Of a stretch of 64,000 nt of DNA, positions 10,576 through 60,857 are shown in pieces. Below the pieces are notes generated by a model. That model saw only the letters and a program-made list of their open reading frames with translations, ran no database searches and was not told the DNA's origin. This stretch comes from Chloroflexota bacterium. GTDB taxonomy: Bacteria > Chloroflexota > Anaerolineae > Anaerolineales > UBA11858. The stretch's first letter is position 1. Each line of letters begins with the position of its first letter. Made by a program: the position numbers and the translations under genes. The stretch spans positions 12,832-76,831 of the forward strand of contig JBDRGC010000127.1 in the NCBI GenBank assembly GCA_043818215.1. Reading direction: 5' to 3'.

Positions 10576-10668
10576 ATTGGTAGGTTGGTAGGTTGGTAGG
10601 TTGGTAAATTGGATCACCAATTTACCAATTTACCAATCTACCAATTCCCAATTTCCCAATCTACCAAT
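10553..10668. repeat. octamer array with inverted arms (TTGGTAGG x~7 / CCAATTTA-CCAATCTA x~6)
   Basis: The arms flank the centre GGATCACC near 10612 and the right arm is the reverse complement of the left. A long imperfect hairpin is predicted. Confidence 0.9.
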
Positions 10669-10685
10669 GCTCTCGTCAGTTTTGT

Positions 10686-10976
10686 TTAGCTTTCAGCGAT
10701 CTGATAAGTTGGCTTTCGCTGTAATTCCTGTAACTTCTCCTGTACCCATAGATTCAACAGGGTTTCGGCTGAAATACCCCGCTTCCTTGCTAAATCTGTG
10801 ATTTTTGATGACAGGGTAGATTCCACGGCAAAGTAAGTTTTACCGGATTGAATATCGATCTCGAATTCGACTTCGGGCATACCATCCAGGTAATCCCCCA
10901 TGTCTGTCTCATCAAAAAATGCTGCCATTTCATCAAGCGATTGGAATTTTGGAAGAGTCTTCCTATTTTCTGGCAT
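10686..10976 (-). CDS. brnA: BrnA-like antitoxin (copy 1)
   Basis: 96 aa, immediately downstream of the BrnT-like gene with a 14-nt overlap. The C-terminal ribbon-helix-helix-like segment is GISAETLLNLWVQEKL. Confidence 0.6.
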   Translation of the reverse strand: MPENRKTLPKFQSLDEMAAFFDETDMGDYLDGMPEVEFEIDIQSGKTYFAVESTLSSKITDLARKRGISAETLLNLWVQEKLQELQRKPTYQIAES

Positions 10977-11247
10977 AGCTTTTTCTCTCTTTGTTCGCCA
11001 TATTTCTGGCGCTCAAGATTAATGCCTGGCGGTTTATTTTATAGATGAACAAAACCGCCAGATACCTTCCTGCGTCCGTTTTCCCCAGCCCAATATATAC
11101 GTCTTCACCCGGACGTTCTCCTTTTTCCATAAAGCGGATTTTTGGTCTGTTTGTGAAGATCTCTTCTACCTCATAAATTTCAACCTGGTGCTTCACGGTC
11201 AGTTTGTTAACAACATCATGCAACCAAAAAAGCCCGGCAATCTTCAT
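10963..11247 (-). CDS. brnT: BrnT-like toxin (DUF497 ribonuclease, copy 1)
   Basis: The W..D..N..KL..KH.V...EVEE pattern, with RYL.V.F, is typical of DUF497. Internal ATG (CAT at 11245-11247). Confidence 0.7.
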   Translation of the reverse strand: MKIAGLFWLHDVVNKLTVKHQVEIYEVEEIFTNRPKIRFMEKGERPGEDVYIGLGKTDAGRYLAVLFIYKINRQALILSARNMANKERKSYARK

Positions 11248-11249
11248 AT

Positions 11250-11540
11250 TTATTCTTCTGCAATCTGATAGACGGGTTTCGGATGCGTTTCTTGCAGTTT
11301 CTCCTGCACCCATAGATTCAACAGGGTTTCGGCTGAAATACCCTGTTCTTTTGCGACCGCGCAAAGCTTTTTGTCAAGGATGGCATCCACAGCAAAGTAG
11401 GTTTTACTGGATTGAATATCGATCTCGAATTCGACAGGATGCGATTGATCCCAAAACTCACCTGCGTCGTGAGAATCCCAAAACTCGCCGATTTCTTCGT
11501 ATGAACTTGCTTTCGAAATTGAACTCTTATTTTTTGCCAT
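11250..11540 (-). CDS. brnA: BrnA-like antitoxin (copy 2)
   Basis: Paralog of 10686..10976, sharing EFEIDIQS.KTYFAV and GISAETLLNLWVQEKLQE. Confidence 0.6.
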   Translation of the reverse strand: MAKNKSSISKASSYEEIGEFWDSHDAGEFWDQSHPVEFEIDIQSSKTYFAVDAILDKKLCAVAKEQGISAETLLNLWVQEKLQETHPKPVYQIAEE

Positions 11541-11604
11541 ATCTTCTCTGTTCTGACCTTGTCATATTTCTCGCTGATACGACTAATGCAAGTTTATCTT
11601 TATT

Positions 11605-11811
11605 CTAGACGAAAAAAATATTCAGATAACGGCCAGCATCCGTTTGCCCAAGCGCTGAGTATACGTTTTCGCCTGGGCGATGGCCTTTTTCCATGAAGCG
11701 GATTTTTGGCCTGTTGGCGAAGACCTCTTCTACCTCATAAATTTCAACCTGGTGCTTCACGGTCAGTTTGTTAACAACATCACGCAACCAAAAAATCCCG
11801 GCAATCTTCAT
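11605..11811 (-). pseudogene. brnT: BrnT-like toxin copy 2, C-terminally truncated
   Basis: Paralog of copy 1. It ends at RYLNIFFV, lacking about 25 C-terminal residues present in copy 1. Confidence 0.5.
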
Positions 11812-11835
11812 ATCCCAATTATACCCCACTTGATT

Positions 11836-12981: not shown

Positions 12982-13056
12982 AACGTGAAGCGTGAAAACG
13001 TGAAGTTACGTATCACGCTTCACGTTTCCCGTCTCATGCCTCACGCCTCACGCATC
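12982..13056. repeat. inverted heptamer words (ACGTGAA / CACGCTT-CACGCCT)
   Basis: acgtgaagcgtgaaaacgtgaag is followed by cacgcttcacgtt and the CTCACGC units. Confidence 0.75.
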
Positions 13057-14193
13057 ATGCGCATTTTATACTTCTCCCGCGACTACACCACCCACGACCA
13101 CCGCTTCCTCTCGGCCCTGGCGAAGACGGAGCACGCGGTAGGCTCTCTGCGCCTGGAGCGCCGGGGACACCAGGTAGAAGATCGACCTCTGCCCCCGGAG
13201 ATCAAACAAATCCAGTGGGCGGGAGGCCAGTCCACGGCAGAATTCAGCGACGGCCCGCGGCTGGTTGCCGGTTTACGGAGAGTGATCGGCACCTTCGAGC
13301 CTGACCTGATCCAGGCCGGCCCTTTGCAACGATCCGCGTTTTTGGTGGCCCTGACAGGCTTCCACCCCCTGGTGAGCATGTCTTGGGGCTACGACCTGCT
13401 CATAGACGCGGATCGCAACCGCTGGTGGAATTGGGCGACGCGGTATACCCTCCGCCGCAGCGATGCTTTCGTGGGGGATTGTGACACCATCCGCAATCTC
13501 GCCATTCAGCACGGCATGACCCCCGACCGCATTGTTACTTTCCCCTGGGGCGCAAACCTCCAACGCTTTACTCCCCTAACCCCTGGCTCGCTCCCCGCTC
13601 CCCTCTCCCCTCTCTCCGCTCTCCGCACCCGTCTCGGCTGGGGTGACGACACCTTTGTGCTGCTCTCCACGCGCGGCTGGTCAGATATTTACGGCGTGGA
13701 AGATTTGGCGCGTGCCTTCGTGTGTGCTACCCGACAGCGACCGGAATTGCGCTTGCTGATGCTGGGCAACGGCCCGCTGGCCTCCACCATTCGGAGGATT
13801 TTCATTCGGGGCGGTGTGCAAGATCAAGTGCATTTTCCGGGGCAGGTAACCCAAGAGAATTTACCCAACTTCTACCGGGCCGCGGATTTGTACATCAGCA
13901 CTTCGCACAGTGATGGCACTTCTATTTCATTGCTCGAAGCATTGGCCTGCGGAACCCCCGTGCTGCTGGCTGATATTCCTGGCAATCAGGAATGGATTAG
14001 GGGTGAGGGCGTCGGCTGGCTGTTCCGCGATGGGGAGGTGGACTCACTCACGGAGGGGATTCTCCACGCCTGGGGTGCGCGGGAGCAGTTGCCCGCTATG
14101 GGCCGCGCCGCTCGTCATTTGGCAGAATCACGCGCCAACTGGGAAAAGAACTTCCTTAAGTTGTTCGAGGCCTGGGAAATCGCGCTATCGTGA
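13057..14193 (+). CDS. glycosyltransferase family 4 (GT-B, GT1-type C-terminal domain)
   Basis: The [24 protein letters not shown] (E-x7-E region) and [10 protein letters not shown] start are typical of GT4. Confidence 0.75.
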
Positions 14194-16012: not shown

Positions 16013-16087
16013 GGACTAGGAATCGGGAACTAGGAAGCTACTACATTCCCGACCCCTAATCCCTAATCCCTGATCCCTAGTCCCTGC
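15990..16087. repeat. inverted heptamer arrays (CAGGGAC/TAGGGAC then CCCTAAT/CCCTAGT)
   Basis: Read directly. It spans the stop of the acetyltransferase gene. Confidence 0.85.
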
Positions 16088-16092
16088 CTCCC

Positions 16093-17433
16093 ATGCTAAA
16101 AGAAATTCTCACCCAACTCTATCCCCTCCACCGCACGCTGGCTTGCGACGGTACTGACGAAGCCTTGCGCATTGTCGGTGCGCAGATGCCCGCGGCCGCA
16201 GGATATGCTATCGAAACCTACACCCCCGGCGCGCCCGTTTGGACGTGGAAGGTGCCGGAGCGATACATAGTTCACGAGGCTTATCTTGAAACGGAGAACG
16301 GCCAGCGCATCGTAGATTTTGCCGACAACCCTCTGCATATCGTTTCGTATTCCCTGCCCATAGACAAACTTCTTACCTGGGATGAACTCGAATCCCACCT
16401 GTATTTCAGCGAGAAACTGCCCCACGCCATCCCCTGGATTTTCAAATATTATCAGCGCGATTGGGGATTCTGCCTGCCCAAAGACACCTTCGACAAGTTG
16501 CCGCGGGATACCCGTTACCGGGCTGTCATCCGCAGCGAGTTTGTCACCGATCCCGATCATGGATTCCGCATCTCAACGGGAGTCCTAACCCCTAACCTCC
16601 TAACCCCTAACCCCCAAACTCCTAACTCGTATAGTACTAACAACCCCGGCGAATTCTTCATCTCCTCCCACATCTGCCACCCCATGCAGGCCAACGATGA
16701 TGCTGCCGGAGTGGTGACGGCCATCGAAGTGGCCCGCCGCCTGGCAGAGAATCCGCTTCCCCCTGGGTCGATGTCGGTGCGCTTCTGGTTCGGCCCGGAG
16801 ACCATCGGCACCATCGCTTACCTGGCTCACCACGAAGACCTGATTCCCCAACTCAAGGGCGGCATCTTCGTGGAGATGACTGGCAACCGCAGCCCCATTG
16901 CCTGGCATCACAGCCGCCAACACGACCACCTGCTCGACCGCGTCACAGACTACGTTCTACGCAACACGGATCACGTCGAGCGCGATTTCGCCGCCCACCC
17001 CGCCAATGACGAACGCGTCATCAACGGCCCCGGCGTCAACGTGCCCTGCATCTCGATCAACCGCTGGCCCTACGATGAGTACCACACCAGCGATGACAAC
17101 CTTGACATCATCCACGAAGATATGCTCCAGGAAGCCGCCGACGTGATCGAAGAAATCGTGCGAATTTATGCCAGCAACTACATACCCAGGCGTACATTCC
17201 GCGGACCGGTGTTTCTCTCCGGTCACGGGCTGTGGGTCGATTGGCGCGATAATTGGGAACTCAACCGCGCCATCGAAAAAATTATGATGCGCTTCGAGGG
17301 ACAGCACAGCATTTTCGACATCGCCGAAGAGGTGGGCCTGGATTACTGGGTGGTGCGCGAATACGTCGAAAAATTCCGGGCTAAGGGTTTTGTGAAAGCG
17401 CTGCCTATTCCCGGCGAGTCTCCGGGTTCATAG
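16093..17433 (+). CDS. aminopeptidase-like domain protein of polysaccharide loci (DUF4910/COG4310-like) with C-terminal winged-helix
   Basis: 446 aa with the M28-like core HICHPMQANDDAAGV. It contains an in-frame heptamer array at 16584-16628. Confidence 0.6.
   Translation: MLKEILTQLYPLHRTLACDGTDEALRIVGAQMPAAAGYAIETYTPGAPVWTWKVPERYIVHEAYLETENGQRIVDFADNPLHIVSYSLPIDKLLTWDELESHLYFSEKLPHAIPWIFKYYQRDWGFCLPKDTFDKLPRDTRYRAVIRSEFVTDPDHGFRISTGVLTPNLLTPNPQTPNSYSTNNPGEFFISSHICHPMQANDDAAGVVTAIEVARRLAENPLPPGSMSVRFWFGPETIGTIAYLAHHEDLIPQLKGGIFVEMTGNRSPIAWHHSRQHDHLLDRVTDYVLRNTDHVERDFAAHPANDERVINGPGVNVPCISINRWPYDEYHTSDDNLDIIHEDMLQEAADVIEEIVRIYASNYIPRRTFRGPVFLSGHGLWVDWRDNWELNRAIEKIMMRFEGQHSIFDIAEEVGLDYWVVREYVEKFRAKGFVKALPIPGESPGS
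16584..16628. repeat. in-CDS heptamer array (CCTAACC)
   Basis: It encodes LTPNLLTPNPQTPN inside the DUF4910-like protein. Confidence 0.8.
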
Positions 17434-17447
17434 GGTATACTTGAAGC

Positions 17448-17819
17448 ATGAGCGCGACTTCGACACTTAAACCTATCGAAATGGATTTAGATACCTGGAA
17501 GACCAGTTTAGAATTGGAACTGGCGCGCTTTGTGGAGCTGGTCATCAATCGTTTCGATCCCCAGAGGATAATTTTATTTGGCTCATTAGCTCAGGATAAT
17601 CCAAAGGTTTGGTCAGATATTGATGTGATAGTCATTCGAGAAACGGATGCTCGTTTTATAGACCGCGGCCTGGAAATTCGGAGTGCATTTCATCCGCGAG
17701 TGGGCATGGATATTTTAGTTTATACTCCCGAAGAGTTCGAACACTTATGTGTTGAGCGGATATTCTTCCGACAAGAAATTCTTGAAAAAGGGAAGGTACT
17801 ATATGAGCAGCGCTACTAA
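17448..17819 (+). CDS. MNT-type nucleotidyltransferase antitoxin (copy A)
   Basis: The GS-x9-12-D-x-D motif (LFGSLAQDNPKVWSDIDV) is present. It is paired with a HEPN gene. Confidence 0.75.
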   Translation: MSATSTLKPIEMDLDTWKTSLELELARFVELVINRFDPQRIILFGSLAQDNPKVWSDIDVIVIRETDARFIDRGLEIRSAFHPRVGMDILVYTPEEFEHLCVERIFFRQEILEKGKVLYEQRY

Positions 17820-18201
17820 TTGGTTGCAATTTGCTCGTGAGGATCTCCGAGTAGCAGAATGGGCACTTGACGAGACAATTAATAATCAAGCTTGTTTTCA
17901 TTCGCAACAATGTGTGGAGAAATCTCTCAAAGCCTGGTTGGTGAGTCAGGGGAAAGCTCCGCCTCGCGTTCATCAGTTGGCGACACTGCTTTCATTGATC
18001 CCTGGTGAACTTGTAGATGATCTCATAGATGGTATTGAGCTTTTGGACCAATTTTATATCCCTACGCGTTATCCTGATGCGCTTGTAAGCTCGTTGCCTG
18101 ATGGTCCGCCAAGCGATCACCAAGCGAGGCATGCCGTAGTGACTGCTCGCAAAGTTCTCCAACGCGTCGAACAACATATTTCCACCCAACCATCCCGTTG
18201 A
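17803..18201 (+). CDS. HEPN-domain toxin (copy A)
   Basis: The FAREDLRVAE...FHSQQCVEKSLKA and IPTRYPD motifs are typical of HEPN. ATG at 17803. Confidence 0.75.
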   Translation: MSSATNWLQFAREDLRVAEWALDETINNQACFHSQQCVEKSLKAWLVSQGKAPPRVHQLATLLSLIPGELVDDLIDGIELLDQFYIPTRYPDALVSSLPDGPPSDHQARHAVVTARKVLQRVEQHISTQPSR

Positions 18202-18308
18202 TTCATCTCCCCTCACCCCTCACCCCTCTTCCCTCTCCAAATATCATCGCCATCGTCCAGGCCCGAATAGACTCTTCTCGCCTGCCGGGCAAAGTGCTGC
18301 TCGACATC
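18198..18308 (+). pseudogene. 5' fragment (~37 codons) of the SpsF-like cytidylyltransferase gene
   Basis: Near-identical to 20476-20586 (MIHLPSPL.PLPSPNIIAI.QAR.DSSRLPGKVLLDI). Similarity stops abruptly at 18308. Confidence 0.7.
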
Positions 18309-18654
18309 AGGGCGAGATACCCTGGCACCGCCCGCCATACCATCCAGGTACAGGACATCGTCCCGATACCTATGCAGGTACTGCGCACTTGCGCCGCACG
18401 CAGTGTAGGTGTGGAAACCTGTCCTGAGTGTATCGAAAGGTCTCGGCTATAGACCCTAACTTTTGAAGAGGATACAAAATTTTATTGTATTCCTTTACCC
18501 CTTCGGGGCACAGGTATGTGTTACTTCGTGCGCAGTGCCTGCATAGGTATACTTTGTGGTTGGCCCCTTTTTGGTTCCGGCCTGTCCCTGTGTATTTCGG
18601 GGGTATGTCCGGGTTAGAGTAGACTTGAAATAGATGTTTTGATATGCCGCTATT

Positions 18655-18981
18655 GTGCAGGAGGCGTTTATGTTAGTTGACACGCGATACGAACACGTAA
18701 TCATGGATGAAGCCAATGTGCCTATAATAACAGGGACAAATACTAAGGTAGTTGAACTTGTTTTGGATAATATTGCCTACGGTTGGAGTCCTGAAGAACT
18801 TCATTTCCAACATCCTGAGTTAACGTTAGGGCAGATATATTCGGCGCTATCTTACTACTGGGACCACAAAGAAGAGCTTGATCAAGACATCGAGCGTCGT
18901 CTTCAACGCGTCAACCATATTCGGGAAGCAGCGCAGCAACTACCCCTGGAAACCCGGTTGAAGACAGCGATGGCAGCCTGA
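18655..18981 (+). CDS. DUF433-domain protein (antitoxin-like)
   Basis: PIITGTNTKVVELV...GWSPEELHFQHPELTLGQIYSALSYY is the pattern of DUF433. The start could be 18670. Confidence 0.65.
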   Translation: MQEAFMLVDTRYEHVIMDEANVPIITGTNTKVVELVLDNIAYGWSPEELHFQHPELTLGQIYSALSYYWDHKEELDQDIERRLQRVNHIREAAQQLPLETRLKTAMAA

Positions 18982-19328
18982 TGGCGATCAAGTTTTACAT
19001 GGACCATCATGTGCCGCGCGCGATCACGAACGGCCTCCGGCTGCGTGATGTAAATGTGATAACTGCTTACGAAGATGGAACCAGCAGATTTGATGACCCA
19101 GACCTGTTGGATCGAGCGGGCGCATTAGGACGCGTGCTATTCACCCGCGATGATGATCTCCTCGTGGAGGCAGCCCGACGACAGCGAAGTGGCATTTCGT
19201 TTCAAGGTGTGATCTATGCTCATCAACTCCATGTCACCATAGGTGTTTGCATTCGTGATTTGGAAACCATTGCCAAGATTGGGGAATCTGACGATTTGAT
19301 GAGTGGAGTGATATTTTTGCCCCTTTAA
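18981..19328 (+). CDS. DUF5615-family PIN-like protein (toxin-like partner of DUF433)
   Basis: The KFYMDHHVPRAITNGLR...VLFTRDDDL pattern is present, and the start overlaps the DUF433 stop (ATGA-type overlap). Confidence 0.65.
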   Translation: MAIKFYMDHHVPRAITNGLRLRDVNVITAYEDGTSRFDDPDLLDRAGALGRVLFTRDDDLLVEAARRQRSGISFQGVIYAHQLHVTIGVCIRDLETIAKIGESDDLMSGVIFLPL

Positions 19329-19342
19329 AGTCGAATAACCTT

Positions 19343-19711
19343 TGGCCCTACGATGAGTACCACACCAGCGATGATAACCTTGACATAATCCACGAAGATA
19401 TGCTCCAGGGAGCCGCCGACGTGATCGAAGAAATCGTGCGAATTTATGCCAGCAACTACATCCCCAGGCGCACATTCCGCGGGCCGGTGTTTCTCTCCGG
19501 TCACGGGCTGTGGGTCGATTGGCGCGATAATTGGGAACTCAACCGCGCCATCGAAAAAATTATGATGCGCTTCGAGGGCCAGCACAGCATTTTCGACATC
19601 GCCGCAGACGTGGGTCTGGATTACTGGGTGGTGCGTGAATACGTCGAAAAATTTCGGGATAAGGCTCTTGTGAAAGCGCTGCCTATTCCCGGCGAGTCTC
19701 CGGGTTCATAG
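19343..19711 (+). pseudogene. 3' fragment (~122 codons) of the DUF4910-like gene
   Basis: Collinear with 17065-17433. By manual alignment about 6 of ~122 residues differ. It has no 5' part. Confidence 0.75.
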
Positions 19712-19725
19712 GGTATACTTGAACC

Positions 19726-20088
19726 ATGAGTACTTTACAGACCCTTGAACCAATTGAGATGGATTTGAATACATGGAAGGCTCGCCTGGAGTCCGAATTG
19801 GCGCGTTTTGTGGACTTAATTATCGAACATTTCTCGCCGAAGAAGATCATCTTATTTGGCTCATTCGCGGAAGGGAAACCGCGGATCTGGTCTGATATTG
19901 ATTTGGTAGTGATCAAAGAAACAGATGATCGCTTTCTGGATCGTTCGAAAGATTTACTTCCTTTACTGATGCCGCGTGTTGGCTTAGACCTCATTGTTTA
20001 CACGCCAGCAGAATTTGACCAATTATGCCAGGAACGTAAATTCTTCCAAGATGAAATCTTGGAAAAAGGGAAAGTGTTGTATGGGTAG
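19726..20088 (+). CDS. MNT-type nucleotidyltransferase antitoxin (copy B, diverged)
   Basis: LFGSFAEGKPRIWSDIDL motif. Clearly more diverged from copy A than the flanking segments are. Confidence 0.75.
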   Translation: MSTLQTLEPIEMDLNTWKARLESELARFVDLIIEHFSPKKIILFGSFAEGKPRIWSDIDLVVIKETDDRFLDRSKDLLPLLMPRVGLDLIVYTPAEFDQLCQERKFFQDEILEKGKVLYG

Positions 20089-20479
20089 CCCCACTGATTG
20101 GCTTTATTTTGCTCGTGAAGATCTTCGTGTGGCAGAATTGACGCTATCGAATGAGATTTACAACCAGGTATGTTTCCACTCTCAACAATGTTGTGAGAAG
20201 GCTCTCAAAGCCTGGCTTGCTCATCAAGGTATTGAATCGCCGAGAAAACATCAATTGAGTGTGCTATTGGCCCTTTCGACGATTGATATTTTTGCAGAGT
20301 TAGGTGGGGATATCGTTCGTCTTGATCGTTTTTACATTCCCACTCGCTATCCTGACGTGCTGGCAGGTTCACTTCCTGAGGGACTTCCAAATAAAGCAAA
20401 TGCCGAGGAAGCTATTGATACTGCTCGCAAAGTTCTCCACCGCGTCGAACAACATATTTCCACCCAACCCTCCCGTTGA
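20081..20479 (+). CDS. HEPN-domain toxin (copy B, diverged)
   Basis: FAREDLRVAE...FHSQQCCEKALKA and IPTRYPD motifs. The last ~19 residues are nearly identical to copy A. Confidence 0.75.
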   Translation: MGSPTDWLYFAREDLRVAELTLSNEIYNQVCFHSQQCCEKALKAWLAHQGIESPRKHQLSVLLALSTIDIFAELGGDIVRLDRFYIPTRYPDVLAGSLPEGLPNKANAEEAIDTARKVLHRVEQHISTQPSR

Positions 20480-21405
20480 TTCATCTCCCCTCACCTCTCT
20501 CCCCTCTTCCCTCTCCAAATATCATTGCCATCATTCAGGCTCGCATGGACTCATCACGCTTGCCGGGAAAAGTGCTGCTCGATATCGGCGGTCGTCCGAT
20601 GCTCCAGTGGGTCGTCGAGCGCACCCGCCGCGCCAAAACCGTGGACGAAGTCATCGTCGCCACCACCACCGACCCATCCGACGATGCCGTAGCCCAATTT
20701 TGCGAGGCCAAAGGTTACCCCGTCACCCGCGGCAGCATCCACGATGTGCTGGATCGCTACTACCAGACCGCCCGGCAATTCAAAGCCGACGTCATCGTGC
20801 GCATCACTGCCGATTGTCCGCTGATTGACCCCGCGCTGGTGGACGGGACGGTGTTCTCGTTATTTGAGATTGGAGATTGGAGATTGAAAGCCGAATCTCC
20901 AATCTCAAATCTCAAATCCCCGATTTTTGACTTCGTCGCCAACCGCCTCCCGCCTCCCTGGGGACGCACCTACCCCATCGGCCTCGACACCGAAGTTTTT
21001 ACATTCGATGCTCTGGAACGTGCCTGGAAGCGAGCTATCGCCAGACACCACCGCGAACATGTCACCCCCTATTTTTACGAAGACACTCCTGTCGATCATT
21101 TGAAATTCAGTGTGCAGGGATCGGAATTTTCCAGCGCCATGACACTTGATGGACTCCACATCGCCTTGCTCCACCACGACCCCGACTACGGCCGCCTGCG
21201 CTGGACGGTGGACACCCCCGCGGATTTGGAACTGGTGCGCGCTATTGTGGCCCATTTCGATAGCCGCGACGACTTCACCTGGCAGGATGTGCTGGCTATC
21301 TTCGAGCGCGAGCCGGAACTGGCGCAAATCAACGCCAGCGTGCGGCACAAGACACACTTGGATGTGGACGATAGGTCAGTAAATCAGGAAGCAGTAAATC
21401 AGTAA
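20476..21405 (+). CDS. cytidylyltransferase-domain protein (SpsF/PseF-like CMP-sugar synthetase family)
   Basis: IIQARMDSSRLPGKVLLDIGGRPML is the N-terminus typical of the SpsF/COG1861 family. The start codon is uncertain (TTG at 20476). It contains an in-frame array at 20866-20919, and its tail (NQEAVNQ) is array-encoded. Confidence 0.7.
   Translation: MIHLPSPLSPLPSPNIIAIIQARMDSSRLPGKVLLDIGGRPMLQWVVERTRRAKTVDEVIVATTTDPSDDAVAQFCEAKGYPVTRGSIHDVLDRYYQTARQFKADVIVRITADCPLIDPALVDGTVFSLFEIGDWRLKAESPISNLKSPIFDFVANRLPPPWGRTYPIGLDTEVFTFDALERAWKRAIARHHREHVTPYFYEDTPVDHLKFSVQGSEFSSAMTLDGLHIALLHHDPDYGRLRWTVDTPADLELVRAIVAHFDSRDDFTWQDVLAIFEREPELAQINASVRHKTHLDVDDRSVNQEAVNQ
20866..20919. repeat. in-CDS inverted heptamer array (GAGATTG x3 / AATCTCC-AATCTCA)
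   Basis: It encodes EIGDWRLKAESPISNLKS inside the cytidylyltransferase. Confidence 0.8.
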
Positions 21406-27004: not shown

Positions 27005-28051
27005 ATGCGCCCGATAGGAAACATGATAAACAAAATCACTAGCCGATTGAAGCTGACCGCCCGAGTGTTTCTTACCGGGCAAATTCTCTCGAATCCGAGA
27101 GGGGAAATTCCCTCCATCACCCCCGAAGAGGTTGCCGAGGCCCGCGAATTCTTCCCCCTCGACAAATTCTTCATCTTCGGCCACGCCCGCTCCGGCACCA
27201 CTCTGCTCACTCGCCTGATCCGCCTGCATCCCGACGTGCATTGCAACTACCAGGGGCATTTCTTCACCCGCCAGCCCACGCTGGAGGGGTTGGTACACAG
27301 CGCCGAGATCGAAGCCTGGCTCACCCGCCGCAGCAATCGCTGGAACCGCGGGCGTGATCTGTCACCCGTGGTGCTGCGTGCCGCGGTGGACTTCATCATG
27401 GAGCGCGAAGCCCGTCCGCTGGGGGCGCGAGTGGTGGGCGATAAAAGCCCCAACAGCCTGCTGAACGGCGAGGCCGTGCGGCTGATGCACAAAGTCTACC
27501 CCGATGGTAAGCTCATCTTTATCGTGCGCGACGGGCGTGACGCAGCCGTTTCGCATCGTTTCCAGACATTTATCGACGCCACCCAACACCTGACAAAAGA
27601 AGACTGGACTATCCGGGAGGCCTTCGAGCGTGACCCGGAGCCGTTCCTGCGTGGCGAACGCTCGATTTTCACCGGGTCGGGCATTCGCACAGCCGCCGAG
27701 GGCTGGGTGCGCAACGTCACCGAGACCGACGAACTTGGCAGGCAGATTTTCGGCCAGCAATACATCTCCCTGCGCTACGAAGACCTGCTCTCCCAACCCT
27801 GGGAGCAGATGGCGCGCTTGTGGCATTTCCTCGACGTGGATACCGAGTTACCCGATTTGCCCGAAACCCTGCGATCCGAACTCACCAGCAACCCCGATAG
27901 GGACTGGCAGCGGCAGAAAGCCGGCGAGTTGGTCGAACCGCTGCAAAAGGGCAAATCCGGCTCCTGGCGGAATTTGTTTGCCAGACGGGATAAGGCGGTG
28001 TTCAATGAGATTGCGGGAGATGTGCTCACTCATTGGGGTTATGGTGACTAG
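27005..28051 (+). CDS. sulfotransferase-family protein
   Basis: 5'-PSB loop GHARSGTTLL and 3'-PB motif IVRDGRDAAVS, characteristic of PAPS-dependent sulfotransferases. Confidence 0.8.
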   Translation: MRPIGNMINKITSRLKLTARVFLTGQILSNPRGEIPSITPEEVAEAREFFPLDKFFIFGHARSGTTLLTRLIRLHPDVHCNYQGHFFTRQPTLEGLVHSAEIEAWLTRRSNRWNRGRDLSPVVLRAAVDFIMEREARPLGARVVGDKSPNSLLNGEAVRLMHKVYPDGKLIFIVRDGRDAAVSHRFQTFIDATQHLTKEDWTIREAFERDPEPFLRGERSIFTGSGIRTAAEGWVRNVTETDELGRQIFGQQYISLRYEDLLSQPWEQMARLWHFLDVDTELPDLPETLRSELTSNPDRDWQRQKAGELVEPLQKGKSGSWRNLFARRDKAVFNEIAGDVLTHWGYGD

Positions 28052-28172
28052 GGATTAGGAACCAGGAAACCAGGAAACCAGGAAATCAGGAAACCAGGAA
28101 ACCAGGAAATACCGCCCCCTGGTCTACTGATTCCTGATTTACTGATCTACTGATCTACTGTTCTACTGATAC
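28049..28172. repeat. octamer arrays with inverted arms (CAGGAAAC then CTACTGAT)
   Basis: Read directly, between the sulfotransferase and oxidoreductase genes. Confidence 0.9.
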
Positions 28173-28179
28173 CTATACT

Positions 28180-29385
28180 ATGAAATTTCTCATCGCCGGC
28201 TTCGGCTCCATCGGACGCCGCCACTTTCGTAATTTGCTTGCTTTGGGTGAGCGTGACATTGTGTTCCTGCGCAGCAAGCGGAGCACTCTGCCCGATGCCG
28301 AGATAGCCGCTTTCCCCGTGGAGACTGATATTCAAGCTGCGCTGGCACACAAGCCGGATGCGGTGATTGTCTCGAATCCCACGTCGCTGCATTTGGATGT
28401 GGCCCTCCCGGCGGCGGAAGCGGGCTGCCACATTTTTTTGGAGAAGCCCATCTCCCATTCGATGGAGCGCGTGGACGAATTGCAGGCCGCAGTCCAGCGC
28501 GGGGGCGGGCAGGTGCTCGTCGGCTTCCAATTTCGCTTTCACCCCAGCCTGGGCCTCATCAAACAATGGTTGTCGGGCAACCACGCCCCACGCTCCACGC
28601 CTCACGCTCCACCCCCCACGCCCCATGCTCTACGCTCCACGCCACACCCCCCACGCCCCATGCTCCACGCCTCACGCTCCACGCCCCACGCTCCACGCTC
28701 CACGCCCCACCACACCCCACGCCCCACGCACCACTCCCCACTCCCCGCGCCCCCAATCTCCAATCTCCAATCTCTAATCTCCAATCCCCACTCCCCCATC
28801 GGCCGGCCCCTTTCCGCCCGCGCCCACTGGGGCGAATATCTCCCCGGCTGGCATCCCTGGGAAGATTATCGGCAGGGGTACAGCGCGCGGGCAGATTTGG
28901 GAGGCGGCGTGATTCTGACACTTTGCCATCCTTTGGATTATCTGCGCTGGTTGTTGGGTGATGTGACAGGATTGTGGGCGTTTACGGGAAAGGCCGGCGA
29001 TTTGGAGTTGGCAGTCGAAGATACTGCTGAAATCGGGCTTCATTTCGCCAGCGGAGTGATTGGCAGTGTGCATCTGGATTATAATCAACGCCCCCCGTCC
29101 CATCACTTGGAAATTGTGGGAACTCATGGAACCATCCGCTGGGACAATGCCGACGGCGCGGTGCATATCTATCGTGCCTCTTCTGATGAATGGGGCATTT
29201 ACCCGCTTCCGCAGGGGTTCGAGCGCAACCAATTGTTCCGGGATCAGATGAAGCATTTCTTAGCGGTCGTGGGTGAGGGCGAGCAGCCTGTCTGTACTCT
29301 CGAAGATGGTGTGTGGGCATTAAGGCTGGCATTGGCCGCGCACGAGTCGGCTCGAAAAGGGGAAGTTATTACTTGGGCAGCGTGA
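28180..29385 (+). CDS. Gfo/Idh/MocA-family oxidoreductase carrying a ~70-aa array-encoded insertion
   Basis: The N-terminal Rossmann domain (MKFLIAGFGSIGRRH, EKP motif) and the C-terminal Gfo-type domain are separated by the low-complexity stretch HAPRSTPHAP...PISNLQS. Confidence 0.75.
   Translation: MKFLIAGFGSIGRRHFRNLLALGERDIVFLRSKRSTLPDAEIAAFPVETDIQAALAHKPDAVIVSNPTSLHLDVALPAAEAGCHIFLEKPISHSMERVDELQAAVQRGGGQVLVGFQFRFHPSLGLIKQWLSGNHAPRSTPHAPPPTPHALRSTPHPPRPMLHASRSTPHAPRSTPHHTPRPTHHSPLPAPPISNLQSLISNPHSPIGRPLSARAHWGEYLPGWHPWEDYRQGYSARADLGGGVILTLCHPLDYLRWLLGDVTGLWAFTGKAGDLELAVEDTAEIGLHFASGVIGSVHLDYNQRPPSHHLEIVGTHGTIRWDNADGAVHIYRASSDEWGIYPLPQGFERNQLFRDQMKHFLAVVGEGEQPVCTLEDGVWALRLALAAHESARKGEVITWAA
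28580..28796. repeat. in-CDS heptamer arrays (CACGCCC/CACGCTC ~24 units, then CCAATCT ~5 units)
   Basis: Read directly. It is open in all three forward frames and two reverse frames (ORF track 28180.., 28367.., 28566.., 28559..28921, 28602..28799). Confidence 0.9.
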
Positions 29386-31375: not shown

Positions 31376-33127
<1,752 letters not shown>

Positions 33128-33198
33128 GTTTTGGAGCGATTCCCAGGTTTCAAAGGACGTTTTGCCAACTCAGAAAGTGCGTCGCACCTGAACTAACC

Positions 33199-34251
33199 AT
33201 GCCCGATTTACCTCGACTTTTCGATCTGACAGACCGCGTTGCCATCGTCACCGGCGCCGCCGGCCTGTTGGGAACTGAATTCTGCCGCACACTGGCCGAG
33301 GCTGGGGCGGCGGTTACGATTGCGGATATGGATGGGGACTCTGCCGCTGATGTGGCGGATACCCTCACCCGAGGCGGATTCCGCGCCCTGGGGCTTAAAA
33401 CCGACGTGACCGCGCCGGATTCCGTTACCCGAATGGTGGCTGCTACCCTGGGGGCATTTGGGCGTCTCGACATCCTGGTTAACTCCGCCGCTCTCGATCC
33501 CAAGGTCAGGGAGCAGGAAGCAGGAAACCAGGAATCAGGAAACCAGGGATTAGGGACTAGGGATCAGGGACTAGGGACTAGGGATCAGGGATCAGGAAAC
33601 CAGGGATCAGGAAACCAGGGATCAGGAAACCAGGGATCAGGAAACCAGGGATCAGGAAACCAGGGATCAGGAAACCAGGGATCAGGAAATCAGGGATCAG
33701 GGACTAGGAATCAGGAACCGGGAGAATCCCTAACCCCTAACCCCCTAACCCCTAACCCCTTGTCCCTCACCTTCGAAGACTACCCCCTCGAACTCTGGCA
33801 GCAAGCTCTGGACGTCAACCTGACGGGGGCTATGCTATGCTGTCAAGCCGCCGTGCGGCCCATGTTGGAACAGGGCCGCGGGGTCATCATCAACATCGCT
33901 TCCATCTACGGCCTCGCCGCCCCCGACCAGCGACTCTATCAGCGTGAAGGGCAGTTCCCGCAGTACAAGCCCGCCTATTACACCGTCACCAAAGCCGGCG
34001 TGCTCGGTCTCACCAAATATCTGGCGGCCTATTATGCTGGCAAGAATATCCGCGTCAATGCCCTGACTCCCGGCGGCGTCTACAACGGCCACGATGACGA
34101 GTTCGTCAAAGCCTACTCCGCCCGCGCCGTCATGGGCCGCATGGCCGAAAAAGACGAGATGAACGGCGCCCTCCTCTTCCTGGCCTCCGAGGCCTCCAAA
34201 TACATGACCGGCGCTAATCTCATCGTCGATGGGGGCTGGACAGCGTGGTGA
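33199..34251 (+). CDS. SDR-family oxidoreductase carrying an ~85-aa array-encoded insertion
   Basis: TGAAGLLG, NSAA and YxxxK (YTVTK) motifs. The insertion (GSGNQ)n lies right after the NSAA strand. ATG at 33199. Confidence 0.75.
   Translation: MPDLPRLFDLTDRVAIVTGAAGLLGTEFCRTLAEAGAAVTIADMDGDSAADVADTLTRGGFRALGLKTDVTAPDSVTRMVAATLGAFGRLDILVNSAALDPKVREQEAGNQESGNQGLGTRDQGLGTRDQGSGNQGSGNQGSGNQGSGNQGSGNQGSGNQGSGNQGSGTRNQEPGESLTPNPLTPNPLSLTFEDYPLELWQQALDVNLTGAMLCCQAAVRPMLEQGRGVIINIASIYGLAAPDQRLYQREGQFPQYKPAYYTVTKAGVLGLTKYLAAYYAGKNIRVNALTPGGVYNGHDDEFVKAYSARAVMGRMAEKDEMNGALLFLASEASKYMTGANLIVDGGWTAW
33506..33762. repeat. in-CDS arrays: CAGGAAAC/TAGGGAC words, a 15-nt (7+8) unit CAGGGATCAGGAAAC x~8, then CCTAACC
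   Basis: Read directly. The 15-nt composite period keeps the frame and gives (GSGNQ)n. Confidence 0.9.
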
Positions 34252-34352
34252 TTCCAGTGTTCAGTATTCAGTTTTCAGTAAAACCGAACACCGAATGCCG
34301 ATCACTGAACACTGAACACTGGACACTGAACACTGAATACTGATGACTGAAA
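34252..34352. repeat. inverted heptamer arrays (TTCAGTG/TTCAGTA then CACTGAA)
   Basis: Read directly, immediately after the SDR stop. Confidence 0.85.
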
Positions 34353-34396
34353 CCCCCGCCCTCACCCCCGCCCGCGGCGGTTGGACGGCTTGGTAA
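34343..34396 (+). pseudogene. orphan 5' end (13 codons + junction) of the NeuA-like cytidylyltransferase gene
   Basis: ATG ACT GAA ... GCC CGC GGC GG encodes MTETPALTPARGG, matching LIPARGG of the intact gene at 37205-37225. It diverges after GCGGCGG. Confidence 0.6.
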
Positions 34397-34529
34397 AAAG
34401 AGCGTTCAGTGCCGGGGGGGGGGTATAATCAAGTATCCGATTCAAGAGGAAAGACACGGATGCGAGGGTGGAAAATGAATTGGCGCAATACAATGTAGTA
34501 TTGGCTTTGCAGCTTGGAGGTTTGGCGTT

Positions 34530-34889
34530 ATGAGTACACTTGATTTGCCAACAACTCTGACGAAGGAGATTCGATGGGAAGCAGAGACCGCTGGAATGTC
34601 AGTGGCGGATTTGCTAGGAGATGCAATTTACCATTACAAGTTAGTATTACAACGCCGCAAGATCAACGCGGAAGCCACTTGGTGGAATAGCGCATCTTCC
34701 GAGATACGTGACATCTACCAGGGGGAATACGTCGCGATTCACTGCCAACAAATTGTGGACCACGACGTTGATCGAGCAGCGCTCTATGACAGAGTGAGAA
34801 AGAAGTACGAAGACGCGGCTGTGCTCATTACCCCGGCCCGTGGAATTCCAACGCTTCGCATCTTAAGCCCTCGCCTGGAACGTTTATGA
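34530..34889 (+). CDS. DUF5678-like small protein (antitoxin-like partner of the aspartic protease)
   Basis: The YQGEYVAIHCQQIVDHD pattern is present, with a 4-nt overlap with the downstream gene. Confidence 0.45.
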   Translation: MSTLDLPTTLTKEIRWEAETAGMSVADLLGDAIYHYKLVLQRRKINAEATWWNSASSEIRDIYQGEYVAIHCQQIVDHDVDRAALYDRVRKKYEDAAVLITPARGIPTLRILSPRLERL

Positions 34890-35293
34890 ACATACCTTAT
34901 GATCCCTCGTACTGGCCGCCCTTTCCGGTTTTAGAAATTTCCCTGGCTCTGCGAGAGCAGCGACCTCAGGTTGGGCCTCTGCTTGCCCTGGTCGATACAG
35001 GCGCAGATGGGACTTTTATTCCCATCACGCATATCAAAACTTTGAGAGCGCCTGTGAGCGGACAGATGATCGTTCATCCGCAGTTTGGCAGCCCATACGT
35101 AGCACATACGCATACATTGGATGTTTTAGCCGGATCAATTCGGCTTTCCGCAATAGAGATTGTAGGAGATGACACGGGAAACGAGATTATTCTGGGTCGT
35201 AATCTGCTCAATAAGTTGGTGATGCTGCTAGATGGGCCGCAGGCTCAAACCGGCGTTTGGGAAAGCCGCCCGGATATTCACTGGCGGAAATAA
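34886..35293 (+). CDS. retropepsin-like (clan AA) aspartic protease
   Basis: ALVDTGADGTFIP contains the D-T/S-G catalytic triad, and the later IILGRNLL flap/closing motif is present. Confidence 0.6.
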   Translation: MNIPYDPSYWPPFPVLEISLALREQRPQVGPLLALVDTGADGTFIPITHIKTLRAPVSGQMIVHPQFGSPYVAHTHTLDVLAGSIRLSAIEIVGDDTGNEIILGRNLLNKLVMLLDGPQAQTGVWESRPDIHWRK

Positions 35294-35377
35294 GATAAAG
35301 GACACGGATGCGAGGGTGGAAAATGAATTGGCGCAATACAATGAACGCATCCCAGGAGTAATTGTTGGAGGTGTAGG

Positions 35378-35650
35378 ATGAAAAGAGTATTGATGTTTCC
35401 GATGTTTCGGTATGTAAAAGCTGCTTTGAGTCAGGCGGAATATGAGCGCAATGAGGATGGCGTCATCATTGCCCAGATAACGAACGCATCTGGTTTTTAC
35501 GCCCAAGGGGACACTTTCGAGGAAGCCCGCGAGAACTTGCGAGACGTAATCGAAGGCAATGTAGTATTGGCTTTGCAGCTTGGGTTGGAGATTCCGGCTA
35601 TCGAGGGGATAATCATTGAGGAACAAAATGTCGAGGCTGTCGCCGCTTAA
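35378..35650 (+). CDS. hicB: HicB-family antitoxin (second locus)
   Basis: GVIIAQITNASGFYAQGDTFEEARENLRDVIE is the pattern of HicB/UPF0150. Confidence 0.65.
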   Translation: MKRVLMFPMFRYVKAALSQAEYERNEDGVIIAQITNASGFYAQGDTFEEARENLRDVIEGNVVLALQLGLEIPAIEGIIIEEQNVEAVAA

Positions 35651-35852
35651 GCCCCATCAGGTCATTCACAAATTACAGAAGCTGGGCTATGAGGGGCCGT
35701 ATCCAGGAGGCCGTCACGTTCGCATGGTTCACGAGGAAACAGGGCAAATCGTTCCTATACCTATGCACAAGGGCAAGGATGTTAGCGTTGGGCTGATTCG
35801 GGCTATCATCCGTCAGGTTGGCATTACGCCCGAAGAGTGGAAGGAGTTGTAA
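35628..35852 (+). CDS. hicA: HicA-family toxin (second locus)
   Basis: The KPHQVIHKLQKLGY...GGRHVRMVH pattern is present. ATG at 35628 preferred over 35616. Confidence 0.7.
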   Translation: MSRLSPLKPHQVIHKLQKLGYEGPYPGGRHVRMVHEETGQIVPIPMHKGKDVSVGLIRAIIRQVGITPEEWKEL

Positions 35853-40813: not shown

Positions 40814-41809
40814 ATGAAAAGACCACTCAGCATCATAATTCCATGCTTCAATGAACAAGCCACTATTCGTTTGCTGCTGGACGCCATCTACGCGCAAACG
40901 TATCCCCGCGAACAGATAGAAGTGATTATTGCCGACGGCATTTCCACGGATGATACCCGCGCAGAGATTCGCGCTTTCCAGCAAACCCATCCAGACCTGA
41001 ACATCGAAGTGGTAGATAACCTGAAGCGCAATATTCCTGCGGGGCTTAACCGAGCCATCGAGGCTGCTGGCGGAGAGTTCATCGTGCGGCTGGATGCTCA
41101 CTCTGTGCCCCACAATGATTACGTTTCCCGGTGCTTGGCTGCTTTAGATGCCGGCCTGGGCGACAACGTCGGAGGGGTGTGGGAAATCCAGCCCTCGGAG
41201 CCGGGATGGGTGGCACGTTCCATTGCGGCTGCGGCAGCCCACCCACTTGGCGTGGGCGATGCCAGTTACCGGGTCGGCGGCCAGCCACAAGCCGTAGATA
41301 CGGTTCCCTTTGGGGCCTTCCGCCGCGCATTGACTGATCGCATAGGCCTTTTTGATGAGACTTTGCTTTCCAATGAAGATTATGAGTTCAACGTTCGGGT
41401 GCGCCAATCGGGGGGCACTGTTTGGATGGACCCTGCAATCCGCTCGCAATACTTTGCGCGTCCTAACCTGCGGGCGCTTGCCAAACAGTATTGGCGCTAC
41501 GGGTATTGGAAATTGTGTATGCTGAGACGTTTCCCGGAGACGTTTCGTTGGCGGCAGCTTTCGGGGGCCTTCGTGCTTACCTGGTTGGTTTTAGGTATAC
41601 TTGCAATTTGGTTCCCTGTGGCTCAGTGGCTCCTGTCGGCGGAGGCTATCATTTACAGTCTAGCCCTGGCAATGGCCGGAGCGCAGACTGCTGTGAAAAA
41701 CCGTGATCTGGCGATGTTGGTTGGCGTGCCTCTGGCAATTGCAACCATGCACTTCGCCTGGGGAACAGCGTTTTTGTGGAGTTTGTTGAAATCGGTGATT
41801 GGAGATTAG
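40814..41809 (+). CDS. glycosyltransferase family 2 with C-terminal TM helices (ExoA-like layout)
   Basis: LSIIIPCFNE, ADGISTDDT and RLDAHS motifs. ATG at 40814. Confidence 0.75.
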   Translation: MKRPLSIIIPCFNEQATIRLLLDAIYAQTYPREQIEVIIADGISTDDTRAEIRAFQQTHPDLNIEVVDNLKRNIPAGLNRAIEAAGGEFIVRLDAHSVPHNDYVSRCLAALDAGLGDNVGGVWEIQPSEPGWVARSIAAAAAHPLGVGDASYRVGGQPQAVDTVPFGAFRRALTDRIGLFDETLLSNEDYEFNVRVRQSGGTVWMDPAIRSQYFARPNLRALAKQYWRYGYWKLCMLRRFPETFRWRQLSGAFVLTWLVLGILAIWFPVAQWLLSAEAIIYSLALAMAGAQTAVKNRDLAMLVGVPLAIATMHFAWGTAFLWSLLKSVIGD

Positions 41810-41909
41810 AGATTGGAGATTGGATACTGGAGATTGGAGATTAGAGACTGGAGACCGTAGACGGAAATTGAGACTGGAAATCTCTAATCCCTAATCTCCA
41901 ATCTCCAAT
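41795..41909. repeat. inverted heptamer arrays (GAGATTG/GAGACTG then AATCTCY)
   Basis: Read directly. It overlaps the GT2 stop. Confidence 0.85.
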
Positions 41910-46593: not shown

Positions 46594-46845
46594 GTTGCTC
46601 AAAATGTTAGTGGTGGATTGCATCCCAAAGGAAGCGTACCCACCAACAAAACCGAATTGTAAATGGTAAATGGTGAATTATAAATGGTAAATGATTGTGG
46701 CGCTGTCTGCACTTCATTTACAATTTACCATTCACCAGTTACCATTTATAATTTCATTCCCCCCTGCATAATTCAAATGACGCACTTTGGGGGGCAAAAA
46801 AGCATTTATGGGGATAACTTGAATAGACCGAACTGCAATATCATG
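46594..46845 (+). repeat. 252-bp dispersed repeat, copy A (contains a TAAATGG inverted heptamer hairpin)
   Basis: Near-identical to 48222-48473 in direct orientation. Confidence 0.9.
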
Positions 46846-48221: not shown

Positions 48222-48473
48222 GTTGCTCAAAATGTTAGTGATGCATTGCATCCCAAAGGATGCGTACCCACCAACAAAACCGAATGGTAAATGGTAAATG
48301 GTGAATTATAAATGGTAAATGATTGTGGCGCTGTCCGCACTTCATTTACAATTTTCCATTCACCATTTTCCATTTATAATTTCATTCCCCCTTCATAATT
48401 CAAATGACGCCCTTTGGGGGGTAAAAAAGGCATTTATGGGAATAACTTGAATAACCCGAACTGCAATATTATG
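48222..48473 (+). repeat. 252-bp dispersed repeat, copy B
   Basis: Near-identical to 46594-46845. It abuts a truncated trmO-like fragment. Confidence 0.9.
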
Positions 48474-60661: not shown

Positions 60662-60710
60662 GGGTTGGGGATGATCGCCGACGGACGACGGGTGACGGGC
60701 GACCGACGAC

Positions 60711-60811
60711 AAAGGTGCGACGCACTTACAATCAGTGCTCAAAAGTTGCGATTTGGCTTGATTTGACGCTGGTTGAGTGCATTGAAATGGTATAAAGTGC
60801 GTCGCACCTTC
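60711..60811. other. pair of inverted copies of the AGGTGCGACGCACTT motif separated by about 64 nt
   Basis: aaaggtgcgacgcactta (60711-60728) and taaagtgcgtcgcaccttc (60793-60811). This is the same core as at 24374-24413 and 33171-33190. Confidence 0.8.
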
Positions 60812-60857
60812 TGCCGATTGATATTGGCGGTCAGCGGTCAGCGGTCGGCAGTCGCTA

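Follow-up and report, generated by a model that had tools for sequence, protein, structure and literature searches.

A translated heptamer array between the two domains of a Chloroflexota Gfo/Idh/MocA oxidoreductase: probably a tolerated linker that can switch the gene ON and OFF by changing in length

Repeats with a non-triplet unit are rare inside genes, and where they have been studied, in neuO and in pathogen contingency loci, they switch expression stochastically. The contingency loci of Haemophilus, Neisseria and Campylobacter carry such repeats within open reading frames (ORFs), a change in unit number shifts the frame, and the loci are concentrated in surface-polysaccharide clusters. 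Classical contingency tracts are homogeneous homopolymers or arrays of 2-5-nucleotide (nt) units, usually located near the 5' end of the gene, and their hosts are host-adapted pathogens. The present analysis concerns a stretch of 64,000 nt from a Chloroflexota metagenome-assembled genome (MAG; GCA_043818215.1, contig JBDRGC010000127.1, positions 12,832 to 76,831 of the forward strand), called the window below, and within it an array of 7-nt units that is translated between the two domains of a Gfo/Idh/MocA-family oxidoreductase. All positions are those of the window unless another contig is named. We consider it probable that the array is a microsatellite translated as a tolerated linker, and that the gene can be turned ON or OFF when the array changes in length.

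The direct heptanucleotide precedent is neuO, the polysialate O-acetyltransferase gene of the CUS-3 prophage in Escherichia coli K1, which contains an (AAGACTC)n tract and is ON only at multiples of three units (PMC3046976). Three units encode one RLKTQDS heptad; the heptads are disordered and dispensable for the fold, and the enzyme activity rises with their number (PMC3046976; PMC9659370). The neuO tract is perfect, comprises 2-93 copies and lies two nucleotides after the start codon, and its high-frequency switching has been shown experimentally (PMC3046976; PMC9659370). Heptamer repeats distributed over whole genomes have been described in cyanobacteria such as Nostoc, where they comprise short tandemly repeated repetitive (STRR) sequences and GGGGAYT repeats, and in Xanthomonas with the unit GGGAATC (PMC4692102). 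The TAACTGA repeats of Beggiatoaceae also belong here, their in-ORF copies in Beggiatoa being mostly at protein ends (PMC4679880), and Chloroflexus aurantiacus carries (GATAGRA)n satellites (PMC6749651). These genome-wide repeats are scattered and mostly intergenic, they often form inverted pairs, and a minority of them is located in ORFs (PMC4692102; PMC4679880; PMC6749651).

The oxidoreductase gene occupies positions 28180..29385 of the forward strand and forms one continuous ORF of 401 amino acids (aa), assigned to its family from the ORF list and the Pfam matches. An earlier note, made from the letters of the window, had placed an in-frame heptamer array inside such an ORF, and this description was borne out by the uninterrupted 401-aa frame, the Pfam domains on both sides and the arrays found with Tandem Repeats Finder. 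The sequence is that of GenBank entry MFH1633640.1, from a Chloroflexota MAG, and the cluster member P0122 is also identical. Look-ups by exact sequence gave no entry for the window protein or for P0122. The N-terminal NAD-binding Rossmann domain (residues 1-133, positions 28180..28578, +) ends in helix 122-132 (..PSLGLIKQWLSG) and is matched at residues 2-116 by PF01408 (GFO_IDH_MocA Rossmann; 61.2 bits, cut-off 24). The C-terminal alpha/beta domain (residues 206-401, positions 28795..29382, +) starts with PIGRPLSARAHWGEYLPGW and is matched at residues 207-397 by PF02894 and PF22725 (58.0 and 67.5 bits; cut-offs 22.9 and 27, respectively); between residues 116 and 207 there were no Pfam matches. 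The protein retains 68 of the 68 invariant columns of the family alignment (n = 68 sequences), with the invariant E88-K89-P90 (E-K-P motif) present in the Rossmann half and the invariant H250, P251, D253 and Y254 in the C-terminal domain. It is an otherwise intact Gfo/Idh/MocA enzyme in which both flanking domains are conserved. None of the NCBIfam equivalog cut-offs was reached by the protein (119 vs 355 bits for the inositol 2-dehydrogenase IolG, 87 bits vs a cut-off of 450 for the archaeal UDP-GlcNAc 3-dehydrogenase); the enzyme probably acts on a sugar or a sugar nucleotide.

The alignment with 120 homologues showed that the array forms an in-frame insert of 72 codons (216 nt, positions 28579..28794, +), which encodes residues 134-205 (NHAPRSTPHAPPPTPH...PISNLQSLISNPHS) and lies between G133 and P206-I-G. 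The family counterpart of the insertion point is '..L.EG-AIGRP..'. The linker of about 100 of the 120 homologues reads '...RFHPGL..(7)..L.EGAIGRPLS...' and that of the window '...QWLSG-[72 residues]-PIGRPLS...', in agreement with the proposal of the earlier note that the insertion splits a G-x-I-G linker. The junction peptides of the insert are ..QWLSGNHAPR.. and ..SNPHSPIGRPLSAR.. at its two ends. Tandem Repeats Finder identified a degenerate CCACGCY array of about 24 units at 28581..28753 (+; CCACGCC x24.3, score 172, 75% matches), which also has a higher-order period of 35 nt (x4.7, score 203, 81% matches), and a CCAATCT array (x5.4) at 28753..28790 (+) that adjoins the I-G-R-P codons. Units related to CCCCAAT/CCAATCT are found at the equivalent site in the relative L086 and, in a decayed form, in L002. 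The 7-nt register can be read off the letters themselves, and the self-identity of the insert is 0.77 at a lag of 7 nt and about 0.35 at other lags. Its longest perfectly periodic tracts measure 20 nt (2.9 units), which is the maximum within the CCACGCY array, and 22 nt (3.1 units).

An AlphaFold model of the oxidoreductase, built on the 68-sequence family alignment, reached a predicted template modelling (pTM) score of 0.81. The block means of the predicted local distance difference test (pLDDT) were mostly 93-98 in the Rossmann domain up to residue 130 (two lower blocks, 76 and 83) and in residues 211-400 of the C-terminal domain (two lower blocks, 86 and 89), and 37-49 in insert residues ~140-200, which are modelled as a loop joining helix 122-132 to strand 210-220. 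The insert is predicted to be a disordered, low-complexity linker rich in Pro, His, Thr, Ser and Ala, and the insertion site is, in the model, a surface loop between two confidently modelled domains. The Foldseek comparison of the model gave a template modelling (TM) score of 0.87 (target-normalised) and a root-mean-square deviation of 2.6 with 2glx and a TM score of 0.85 with 4koa, and the top-scoring sequence alignment with a chain of known structure, again 2glx, restarts at query residue 205, skipping the 72-residue insert. The solved Gfo/Idh/MocA enzymes (1,5-anhydro-D-fructose reductase 2glx and 4koa, WlbA 3q2k and GenD2 6nor) share the EKP motif and the two-domain fold with the oxidoreductase, and the matches in sequence and in fold extend over both domains, although the sequence identity to them is only 16-22%. 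The predicted RNA structure of the in-gene array was no better than that of shuffled sequences (z = +0.9) and the insert matched no Rfam family, and an RNA element was ruled out on these two results. An intein, an intron or another mobile insertion was likewise ruled out, as the insert is pure tandem repeat without an ORF, terminal repeats or conserved ends.

Over positions 28580-28796, three of the six frames are stop-free, two of them on the forward strand and one on the reverse strand, and not five as had been claimed. The remaining two reverse frames hold one and three stops, and the third forward frame holds one TAA, which comes from the variant unit CTCTAAT; the ORF of that frame ends at 28777. 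The heptamer array encodes an identical 7-residue repeat in all three frames. As it reads alike in every frame, its total length modulo 3 alone decides whether the C-terminal domain is translated. The expectation that the gain or loss of a single unit throws this domain out of frame was confirmed by simulation, in which the gain or loss of one or two units gave truncated products of 196-262 aa. After the loss of one unit or the gain of two, translation meets the TAA at 28775..28777 (+), which ends the alternative-frame ORF 28367..28777 and leaves an OFF product of 196-203 aa; after the gain of one unit or the loss of two, it meets the stop codon at 28959..28961 (+), which ends the alternative-frame ORF 28566..28961 and leaves an OFF product of 255-262 aa. 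The simulated loss of three units (21 nt) or of 105 nt preserved the frame.

The linker interval is longest in the window (219 nt), shorter in L001 (114 nt) and shortest in L086 (68 nt). L001 (GCA_018812425.1) is about 99.9% identical to the window, with fewer than 10 substitutions in the first 8 kb of an 8.4-kb pairwise alignment and none inside the oxidoreductase gene. The only indel within these 8 kb is a 105-nt block of the array (28603..28707, +), corresponding to 15 units or 3 x 35 nt, which is missing in L001; the frame is kept, and the shorter product is P0001 (366 aa). L086 (GCA_030592935.1) is syntenic, shares about 91% DNA identity with the window and has intact neighbouring genes. 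Its array consists of nine exact 7-nt units (GAAGAAT, CTCCAAT, CCCTACT, CCCCAAT, CTCCAAT and CCCCAAT x4), contains a longest perfect tract of 37 nt (5.3 units) and closes with the 'CCCCC' end common to the window. The total length is 68 nt (68 mod 3 = 2), which places the N-terminal domain (gene call P0124, 193 aa) in another frame than the C-terminal domain; one additional unit (75 nt) or the loss of two (54 nt) would restore the frame. The edges of this array are reproduced elsewhere, the left one in L087 and the right one in the window. Since all units are exactly 7 nt long and the edges are corroborated, the frameshift results from the unit number and not from a homopolymer error. The C-terminal domain of L086 is complete and stop-free across 195 codons, and the ratio of nonsynonymous to synonymous substitution rates (dN/dS) between L086 and the window is 0.10 for the N-terminal and 0.17 for the C-terminal domain (dS about 0.4). 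By these values, the C-terminal domain is under purifying selection although it is out of frame; its open frame, its dN/dS of 0.17 and its dS of about 0.36 imply that the frameshift is recent or reversible.

With respect to the features of phase-variable genes, the locus has a non-triplet (7-nt) unit inside an ORF, whose change shifts the frame in the simulations. The array length differs among close relatives, the L001 figure being possibly an assembly collapse. In-frame and out-of-frame alleles that are otherwise intact are both present, the OFF allele being found in a lineage diverged by about 9% and not in the same strain. A long homogeneous tract is missing, the longest perfect tracts of the window having 2.9 and 3.1 units.

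Further assemblies cover parts of the array. L087 (GCA_018822265.1, JAHJKI010000693.1) shares 99.6% identity with the window along 4.3 kb and ends at the left edge of the array. At its positions 4200-4302 (window ~28480-28580), the divergence rises to about 18% in the ~90 nt that precede the array, and an L086-type array start follows (GGCGAAGAATCTCC); from the sequence, this edge of the array resembles an allele segment brought in by recombination or import. L085 (JAHJKI010000500.1), which comes from the same MAG as L087 (GCA_018822265.1), contains the right 120 nt of the window array with 99.97% identity. At its positions 7560-7700, the array half is joined through inverted GCGTGGA/TCCACGC arrays to a 296-aa truncated ORF of the NAD-dependent DNA ligase (ligA). 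The junction is either a chimeric contig formed via shared arrays or a real rearrangement, and it raises the possibility of a similar array in ligA as well. As its array half is fused to a ligA fragment, L085 was dropped as a truncated allele.

The search with the N-terminal domain only also returned many truncated ORFs, among them the orthologues on two contigs of the European Nucleotide Archive (ENA), L088 and L090 (ERZ25039603 and ERZ25039514, respectively), which are split at or near the linker. Neither was counted as an OFF allele. Most of the neighbouring genes of L088 are fragmented, and a long-read sequencing error is likelier; in L090 the neighbours are intact and the 1-nt shift, located in an A run and adjoining a CTGATCA GTGATCA remnant, is a probable sequencing error. 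Two scans of metagenome contigs, one with the left flank and the other with the right flank conserved in both lineages, gave no further copies.

The homologues of the oxidoreductase form a well-populated Anaerolineales/Chloroflexota group with a modal length of 328 aa. The comparison with homologues proposed in the earlier note showed that about 100 of 120 (~85%) have no insert at this position, including the closest ones at about 75% identity. A scan of genome contigs yielded 80 orthologous loci, none of them of the window's species and almost all without an insert, and the parsable loci of GTDB representatives mostly have the canonical 26-residue stretch, with 2-11 extra residues in a few. 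With the insert disregarded, the identity of the window protein is 100% with P0001 and does not exceed 75-76% with any other sequence. The insert is thus derived and belongs to a narrow lineage.

Among 121 aligned sequences, 17 have three or more extra residues at the exact position of the insert, and these 17 include the window protein and P0001. The insert-bearing sequences span several separate sub-lineages, and the lengths vary within them. The insert DNA of L002/P0117 has a lag-7 value of 0.45, matched by 0 of 5000 shuffles, and that of L089/P0018 a value of 0.41, matched by 5 of 5000. Moreover, L002 keeps an ATCCTTA x3.4 mini-array and CCAATCT-like units adjoining the IGRP codons. The presence of decayed 7-periodic inserts, in frame, in distant orthologues indicates that arrays entered the linker loop or persisted in it repeatedly, and shows that the loop tolerates translated arrays over the long term, after the repeats themselves have decayed. 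A palindromic insert, CCCTCTCCCCTGGGGAGAGGG, is located at the linker site of L052 (~1876-1986; UBA11857, DOTA01000519.1) and translated as ..ALTPALSPGERGS..; it is of the hairpin type and not a one-orientation array.

The window contains 59 tandem arrays, mostly of 7- or 8-nt units, which account for 5.5% of its bases. Almost every intergenic spacer holds such arrays, many of them as inverted pairs, in which an array and a reverse-complement array flank a short spacer and would fold into a long hairpin. Examples are located at 10553-10668, 20862-20918, 28060-28170, 41797-41909, 46654-46748 and 48283-48382. The array of the oxidoreductase, which had at first been treated as specific to its gene, is one of these 59 and belongs to the genome-wide 7-/8-nt repeat population: units of the CCAATCT type are found again at 35878, 37066 and 41797, and units of the CCACGCT type at 43330 (reverse complement). 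Further unit types among the arrays include AACCAGGA, ACTGATCT and CCCTAAC, and telomere-like units (CCCTAAT, CCTAACC, CCCTAAC) were seen in the arrays at 16054-16085, 16584-16626 and 33728-33760. The intergenic region upstream of the oxidoreductase, outside the insert, holds an octamer array pair (28060..28170, +), in which Tandem Repeats Finder detected AACCAGGA x6 followed by CTGATCTA x6.6. The RNA fold of 28045-28185 is a long imperfect hairpin (-42.9 kcal/mol, z = -5.1), and the octamer pair shows no indels relative to L001 in the 8.4-kb alignment. Unlike this hairpin-forming pair, which has the form typical of the intergenic members of the repeat population, the in-gene array has a single orientation.

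Five other genes of the window have internal arrays, every one of which is read in frame. The heptamer array of a GT4 glycosyltransferase (13571-13635, ORF 12985-14193) lies exactly between the N- and C-terminal Pfam domains, and those of a DUF4910/M28-like protein (16583-16626, ORF 16093-17433) and a cytidylyltransferase (CTP_transf_3; 20862-20958, ORF 20476-21405) lie inside the domain matches. The array of a short-chain dehydrogenase (33506-33760, ORF 32821-34251, +) has a 15-nt (7+8) period x13 followed by CCCTAAC x4.6, and it adds about 85 residues in frame, which interrupt the adh_short match near profile position 90; as 15 nt is a multiple of three, slippage in this array would keep the frame. 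The same array differs by 51 nt between L001 and the window, although the L001 contig ends there. The array of a melibiase-like ORF of 896 aa (59680-59752, ORF 58184-60874, -; CTGAAGA x10.4, 93% matches) is found a short way upstream of the Melibiase-domain match. No other in-gene array of the window is as pure; it has a perfect tract of 36 nt and is the window's best candidate for active slippage. In general, the in-gene arrays are equally or more degenerate than the intergenic ones. No genes split by arrays were seen, and the ORFs beside the other arrays have complete domains, although not all ORFs were scanned.

The neighbours of the oxidoreductase encode a sulfotransferase, an ATP-sulfurylase/APS-kinase, glycosyltransferases, cytidylyltransferases, a Polysacc_synt_2 dehydratase and an initiating sugar transferase. 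This neighbourhood is a surface polysaccharide biosynthesis cluster, and the polysaccharide is probably sulfated. The cluster also contains two genes with HEPN domains (17749-18201 and 19994-20479, +), a type known from toxin-antitoxin and defence systems, and stretches of ~1.2-1.75 kb without long ORFs are found near them (10669-11835, 18239-19993 and 34352-35817).

The explanation that we favour is that a heptamer microsatellite from the genome-wide repeat population came to sit in the inter-domain loop of the oxidoreductase. Changes in its length would arise through replication slippage or unequal recombination between 7-nt or 35-nt units, the array length modulo 3 would set whether the C-terminal domain is read, and the gene would alternate between ON and OFF on an evolutionary time scale, much as a contingency locus does. 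The window allele is ON, and its many unit interruptions would stabilise it. Switching at this array is probably slow, as its longest perfect tract of 2.9 units makes fast switching unlikely, and the linker peptide is probably close to neutral. The earlier note had offered a slipped-strand ON/OFF switch and a tolerated disordered loop as alternatives. The loop is supported by the pLDDT of 37-49, the 68 retained invariant columns, the in-frame L001 allele and the decayed in-frame inserts of the orthologues; as for the switch, the nine-unit OFF allele of L086 speaks for it, although the window array is too degenerate for a fast one. The evidence supports a mixture of the two, in which a tolerated loop is also a length-dependent switch.

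Several points weigh against this explanation. The evidence consists of assembled MAG sequences, and the informative alleles are three. The OFF allele belongs to a lineage diverged by about 9%, with a different array make-up (CCCCAAT only), and the perfect tract of 2.9 units in the window array falls well short of the homogeneous tracts known from classical phase-variable genes. The block of 105 nt that L001 lacks is possibly an assembly collapse of the 35-nt repeat, with a 1/3 chance of being in frame, and contigs often break or misjoin at these arrays, as in L085 and L087, all sequences being from MAGs. That six of six in-gene arrays are in frame, with a chance of about 0.0014 under random exit frames, speaks for the explanation, but the count presupposes that any split genes were recognised as such.

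A dedicated, selected switch of the neuO type, in which rapid ON/OFF changes benefit the population (e.g., in phage evasion) and the other array-bearing genes of the cluster act likewise, seems to us rather doubtful. It would agree with a non-triplet repeat within the ORF of a glycan-cluster enzyme, with an OFF allele in L086 that is exactly one unit from ON and has a C-terminal domain under purifying selection, with the 37-nt perfect tract (5.3 units) of that allele, and with the allelic diversity of L087, most of which falls on the array and the sequence to its left; surface-glycan loci are, moreover, classical for contingency genes, with neuO as the heptanucleotide precedent. However, the window array has many interruptions, with 75% matches and no more than 2.9 perfect units, in-gene arrays are no less degenerate than intergenic ones, both near-identical strains (the window and L001) are ON, and similar arrays fill nearly all spacers, so that the presence of one in a gene needs no gene-specific selection. 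We regard as improbable a function of the linker peptide itself, which would then be retained for its properties as spacer, tether or means of tuning activity comparable to the RLKTQDS heptads of NeuO, with frame-shifting as a side effect. About 85% of the homologues, the closest at ~75% identity included, have no insert at all, the insert sequences are unrelated between lineages except for repeat remnants, their length varies freely (70, 35, 38, 23, 16, 9 ... residues), and the insert is predicted to be disordered, without a conserved motif. In favour of such a function are the recurrence of inserts of 3-70 residues at the exact site in several sub-lineages, in frame after repeat decay, and the activity of NeuO, which climbs with the heptad number.

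That the array destroyed the enzyme and the frame is open by chance, the gene being a pseudogene or one in the making, is highly improbable. Because stops are few in an array of this composition, a frame that stays open through it does not point to selection; the chance of a correct exit frame is 1/3, and L086 is frame-shifted. Neither domain, however, has a stop, a frameshift or a lost invariant residue, and the dN/dS values against L086 are 0.10 and 0.17. L001 is likewise in frame with a different array length, as are five further array-bearing genes, and the array entered at a surface loop that joins two domains modelled with confidence. Mis-assembly of repeats in MAGs, which would account for the array length or for the array itself, is hinted at by the L001 contig ending in the short-chain dehydrogenase array, by L087 ending at the left edge of the oxidoreductase array, by the joining of its right half to a ligA fragment in L085 and by a 105-nt difference that equals three higher-order units. 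Nevertheless, an artefact is extremely improbable, since four independent assemblies have the array at the identical site, the right 120 nt of the window's long form recur in L085 with 99.97% identity, and the L086 array is just 68 nt of exact 7-nt units, well inside the length of a short read.

A wider reading is conceivable, though we hold it to be unlikely: at least six glycan-cluster genes with translated 7-nt arrays (the GT4 glycosyltransferase, DUF4910/M28-like, cytidylyltransferase, Gfo/Idh/MocA oxidoreductase, short-chain dehydrogenase and melibiase-like genes) would form a combinatorial contingency system that varies a sulfated surface glycan, for instance against phages. It is equally speculative that the arrays of such a system were seeded from the genome-wide repeats and that its switches are placed in inter-domain loops and not at gene starts. 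If the switching of the oxidoreductase is real, surface-glycan phase variation extends to a free-living, uncultured lineage, and inter-domain loops can host such switches. Even without switching, genome-wide microsatellites create disordered protein linkers that outlast the decay of the DNA repeat. A practical warning also follows: such arrays break and misjoin metagenome assemblies and split gene calls.

Compared with the described genome-wide heptamer repeats, the 59 dispersed, mainly intergenic arrays of the window with their recurring unit types are similar, the likeness to STRR sequences being one of arrangement. Unlike in the described repeats, the units of the window are many and different, and the host is an Anaerolineales-like Chloroflexota MAG; unlike the in-ORF repeats of Beggiatoa, at least five arrays of the window are mid-gene, inside or between known domains, and in frame. 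The classical contingency tracts differ from the oxidoreductase array, which has 7-nt units, is 216 nt long, degenerate and mid-protein, and belongs to an environmental Chloroflexota bacterium. As in neuO, a tandem 7-nt unit is located inside the coding region of a glycan-modifying enzyme and the full-length product needs an in-frame tract, the encoded repeat (PRPTPHA/HAPRSTP) is predicted to be disordered like the NeuO heptads, and a relative (L086) has an out-of-frame allele one unit from ON. Unlike in neuO, the tract lies in the middle of the protein (residues 134-205), between two domains, in an unrelated fold and a different phylum; it is composite (CCACGCY + CCAATCT) and degenerate, and it belongs to a genome-wide repeat population. 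Both the unit and the fold differ from (AAGACTC)n and the left-handed beta-helix of the O-acetyltransferase, and the locus would represent a neuO-like mode and not a member of that system. By analogy, then, the oxidoreductase array resembles the known neuO-type tract, and what appears to be new is its setting: mid-protein, degenerate and in an environmental Chloroflexota bacterium.

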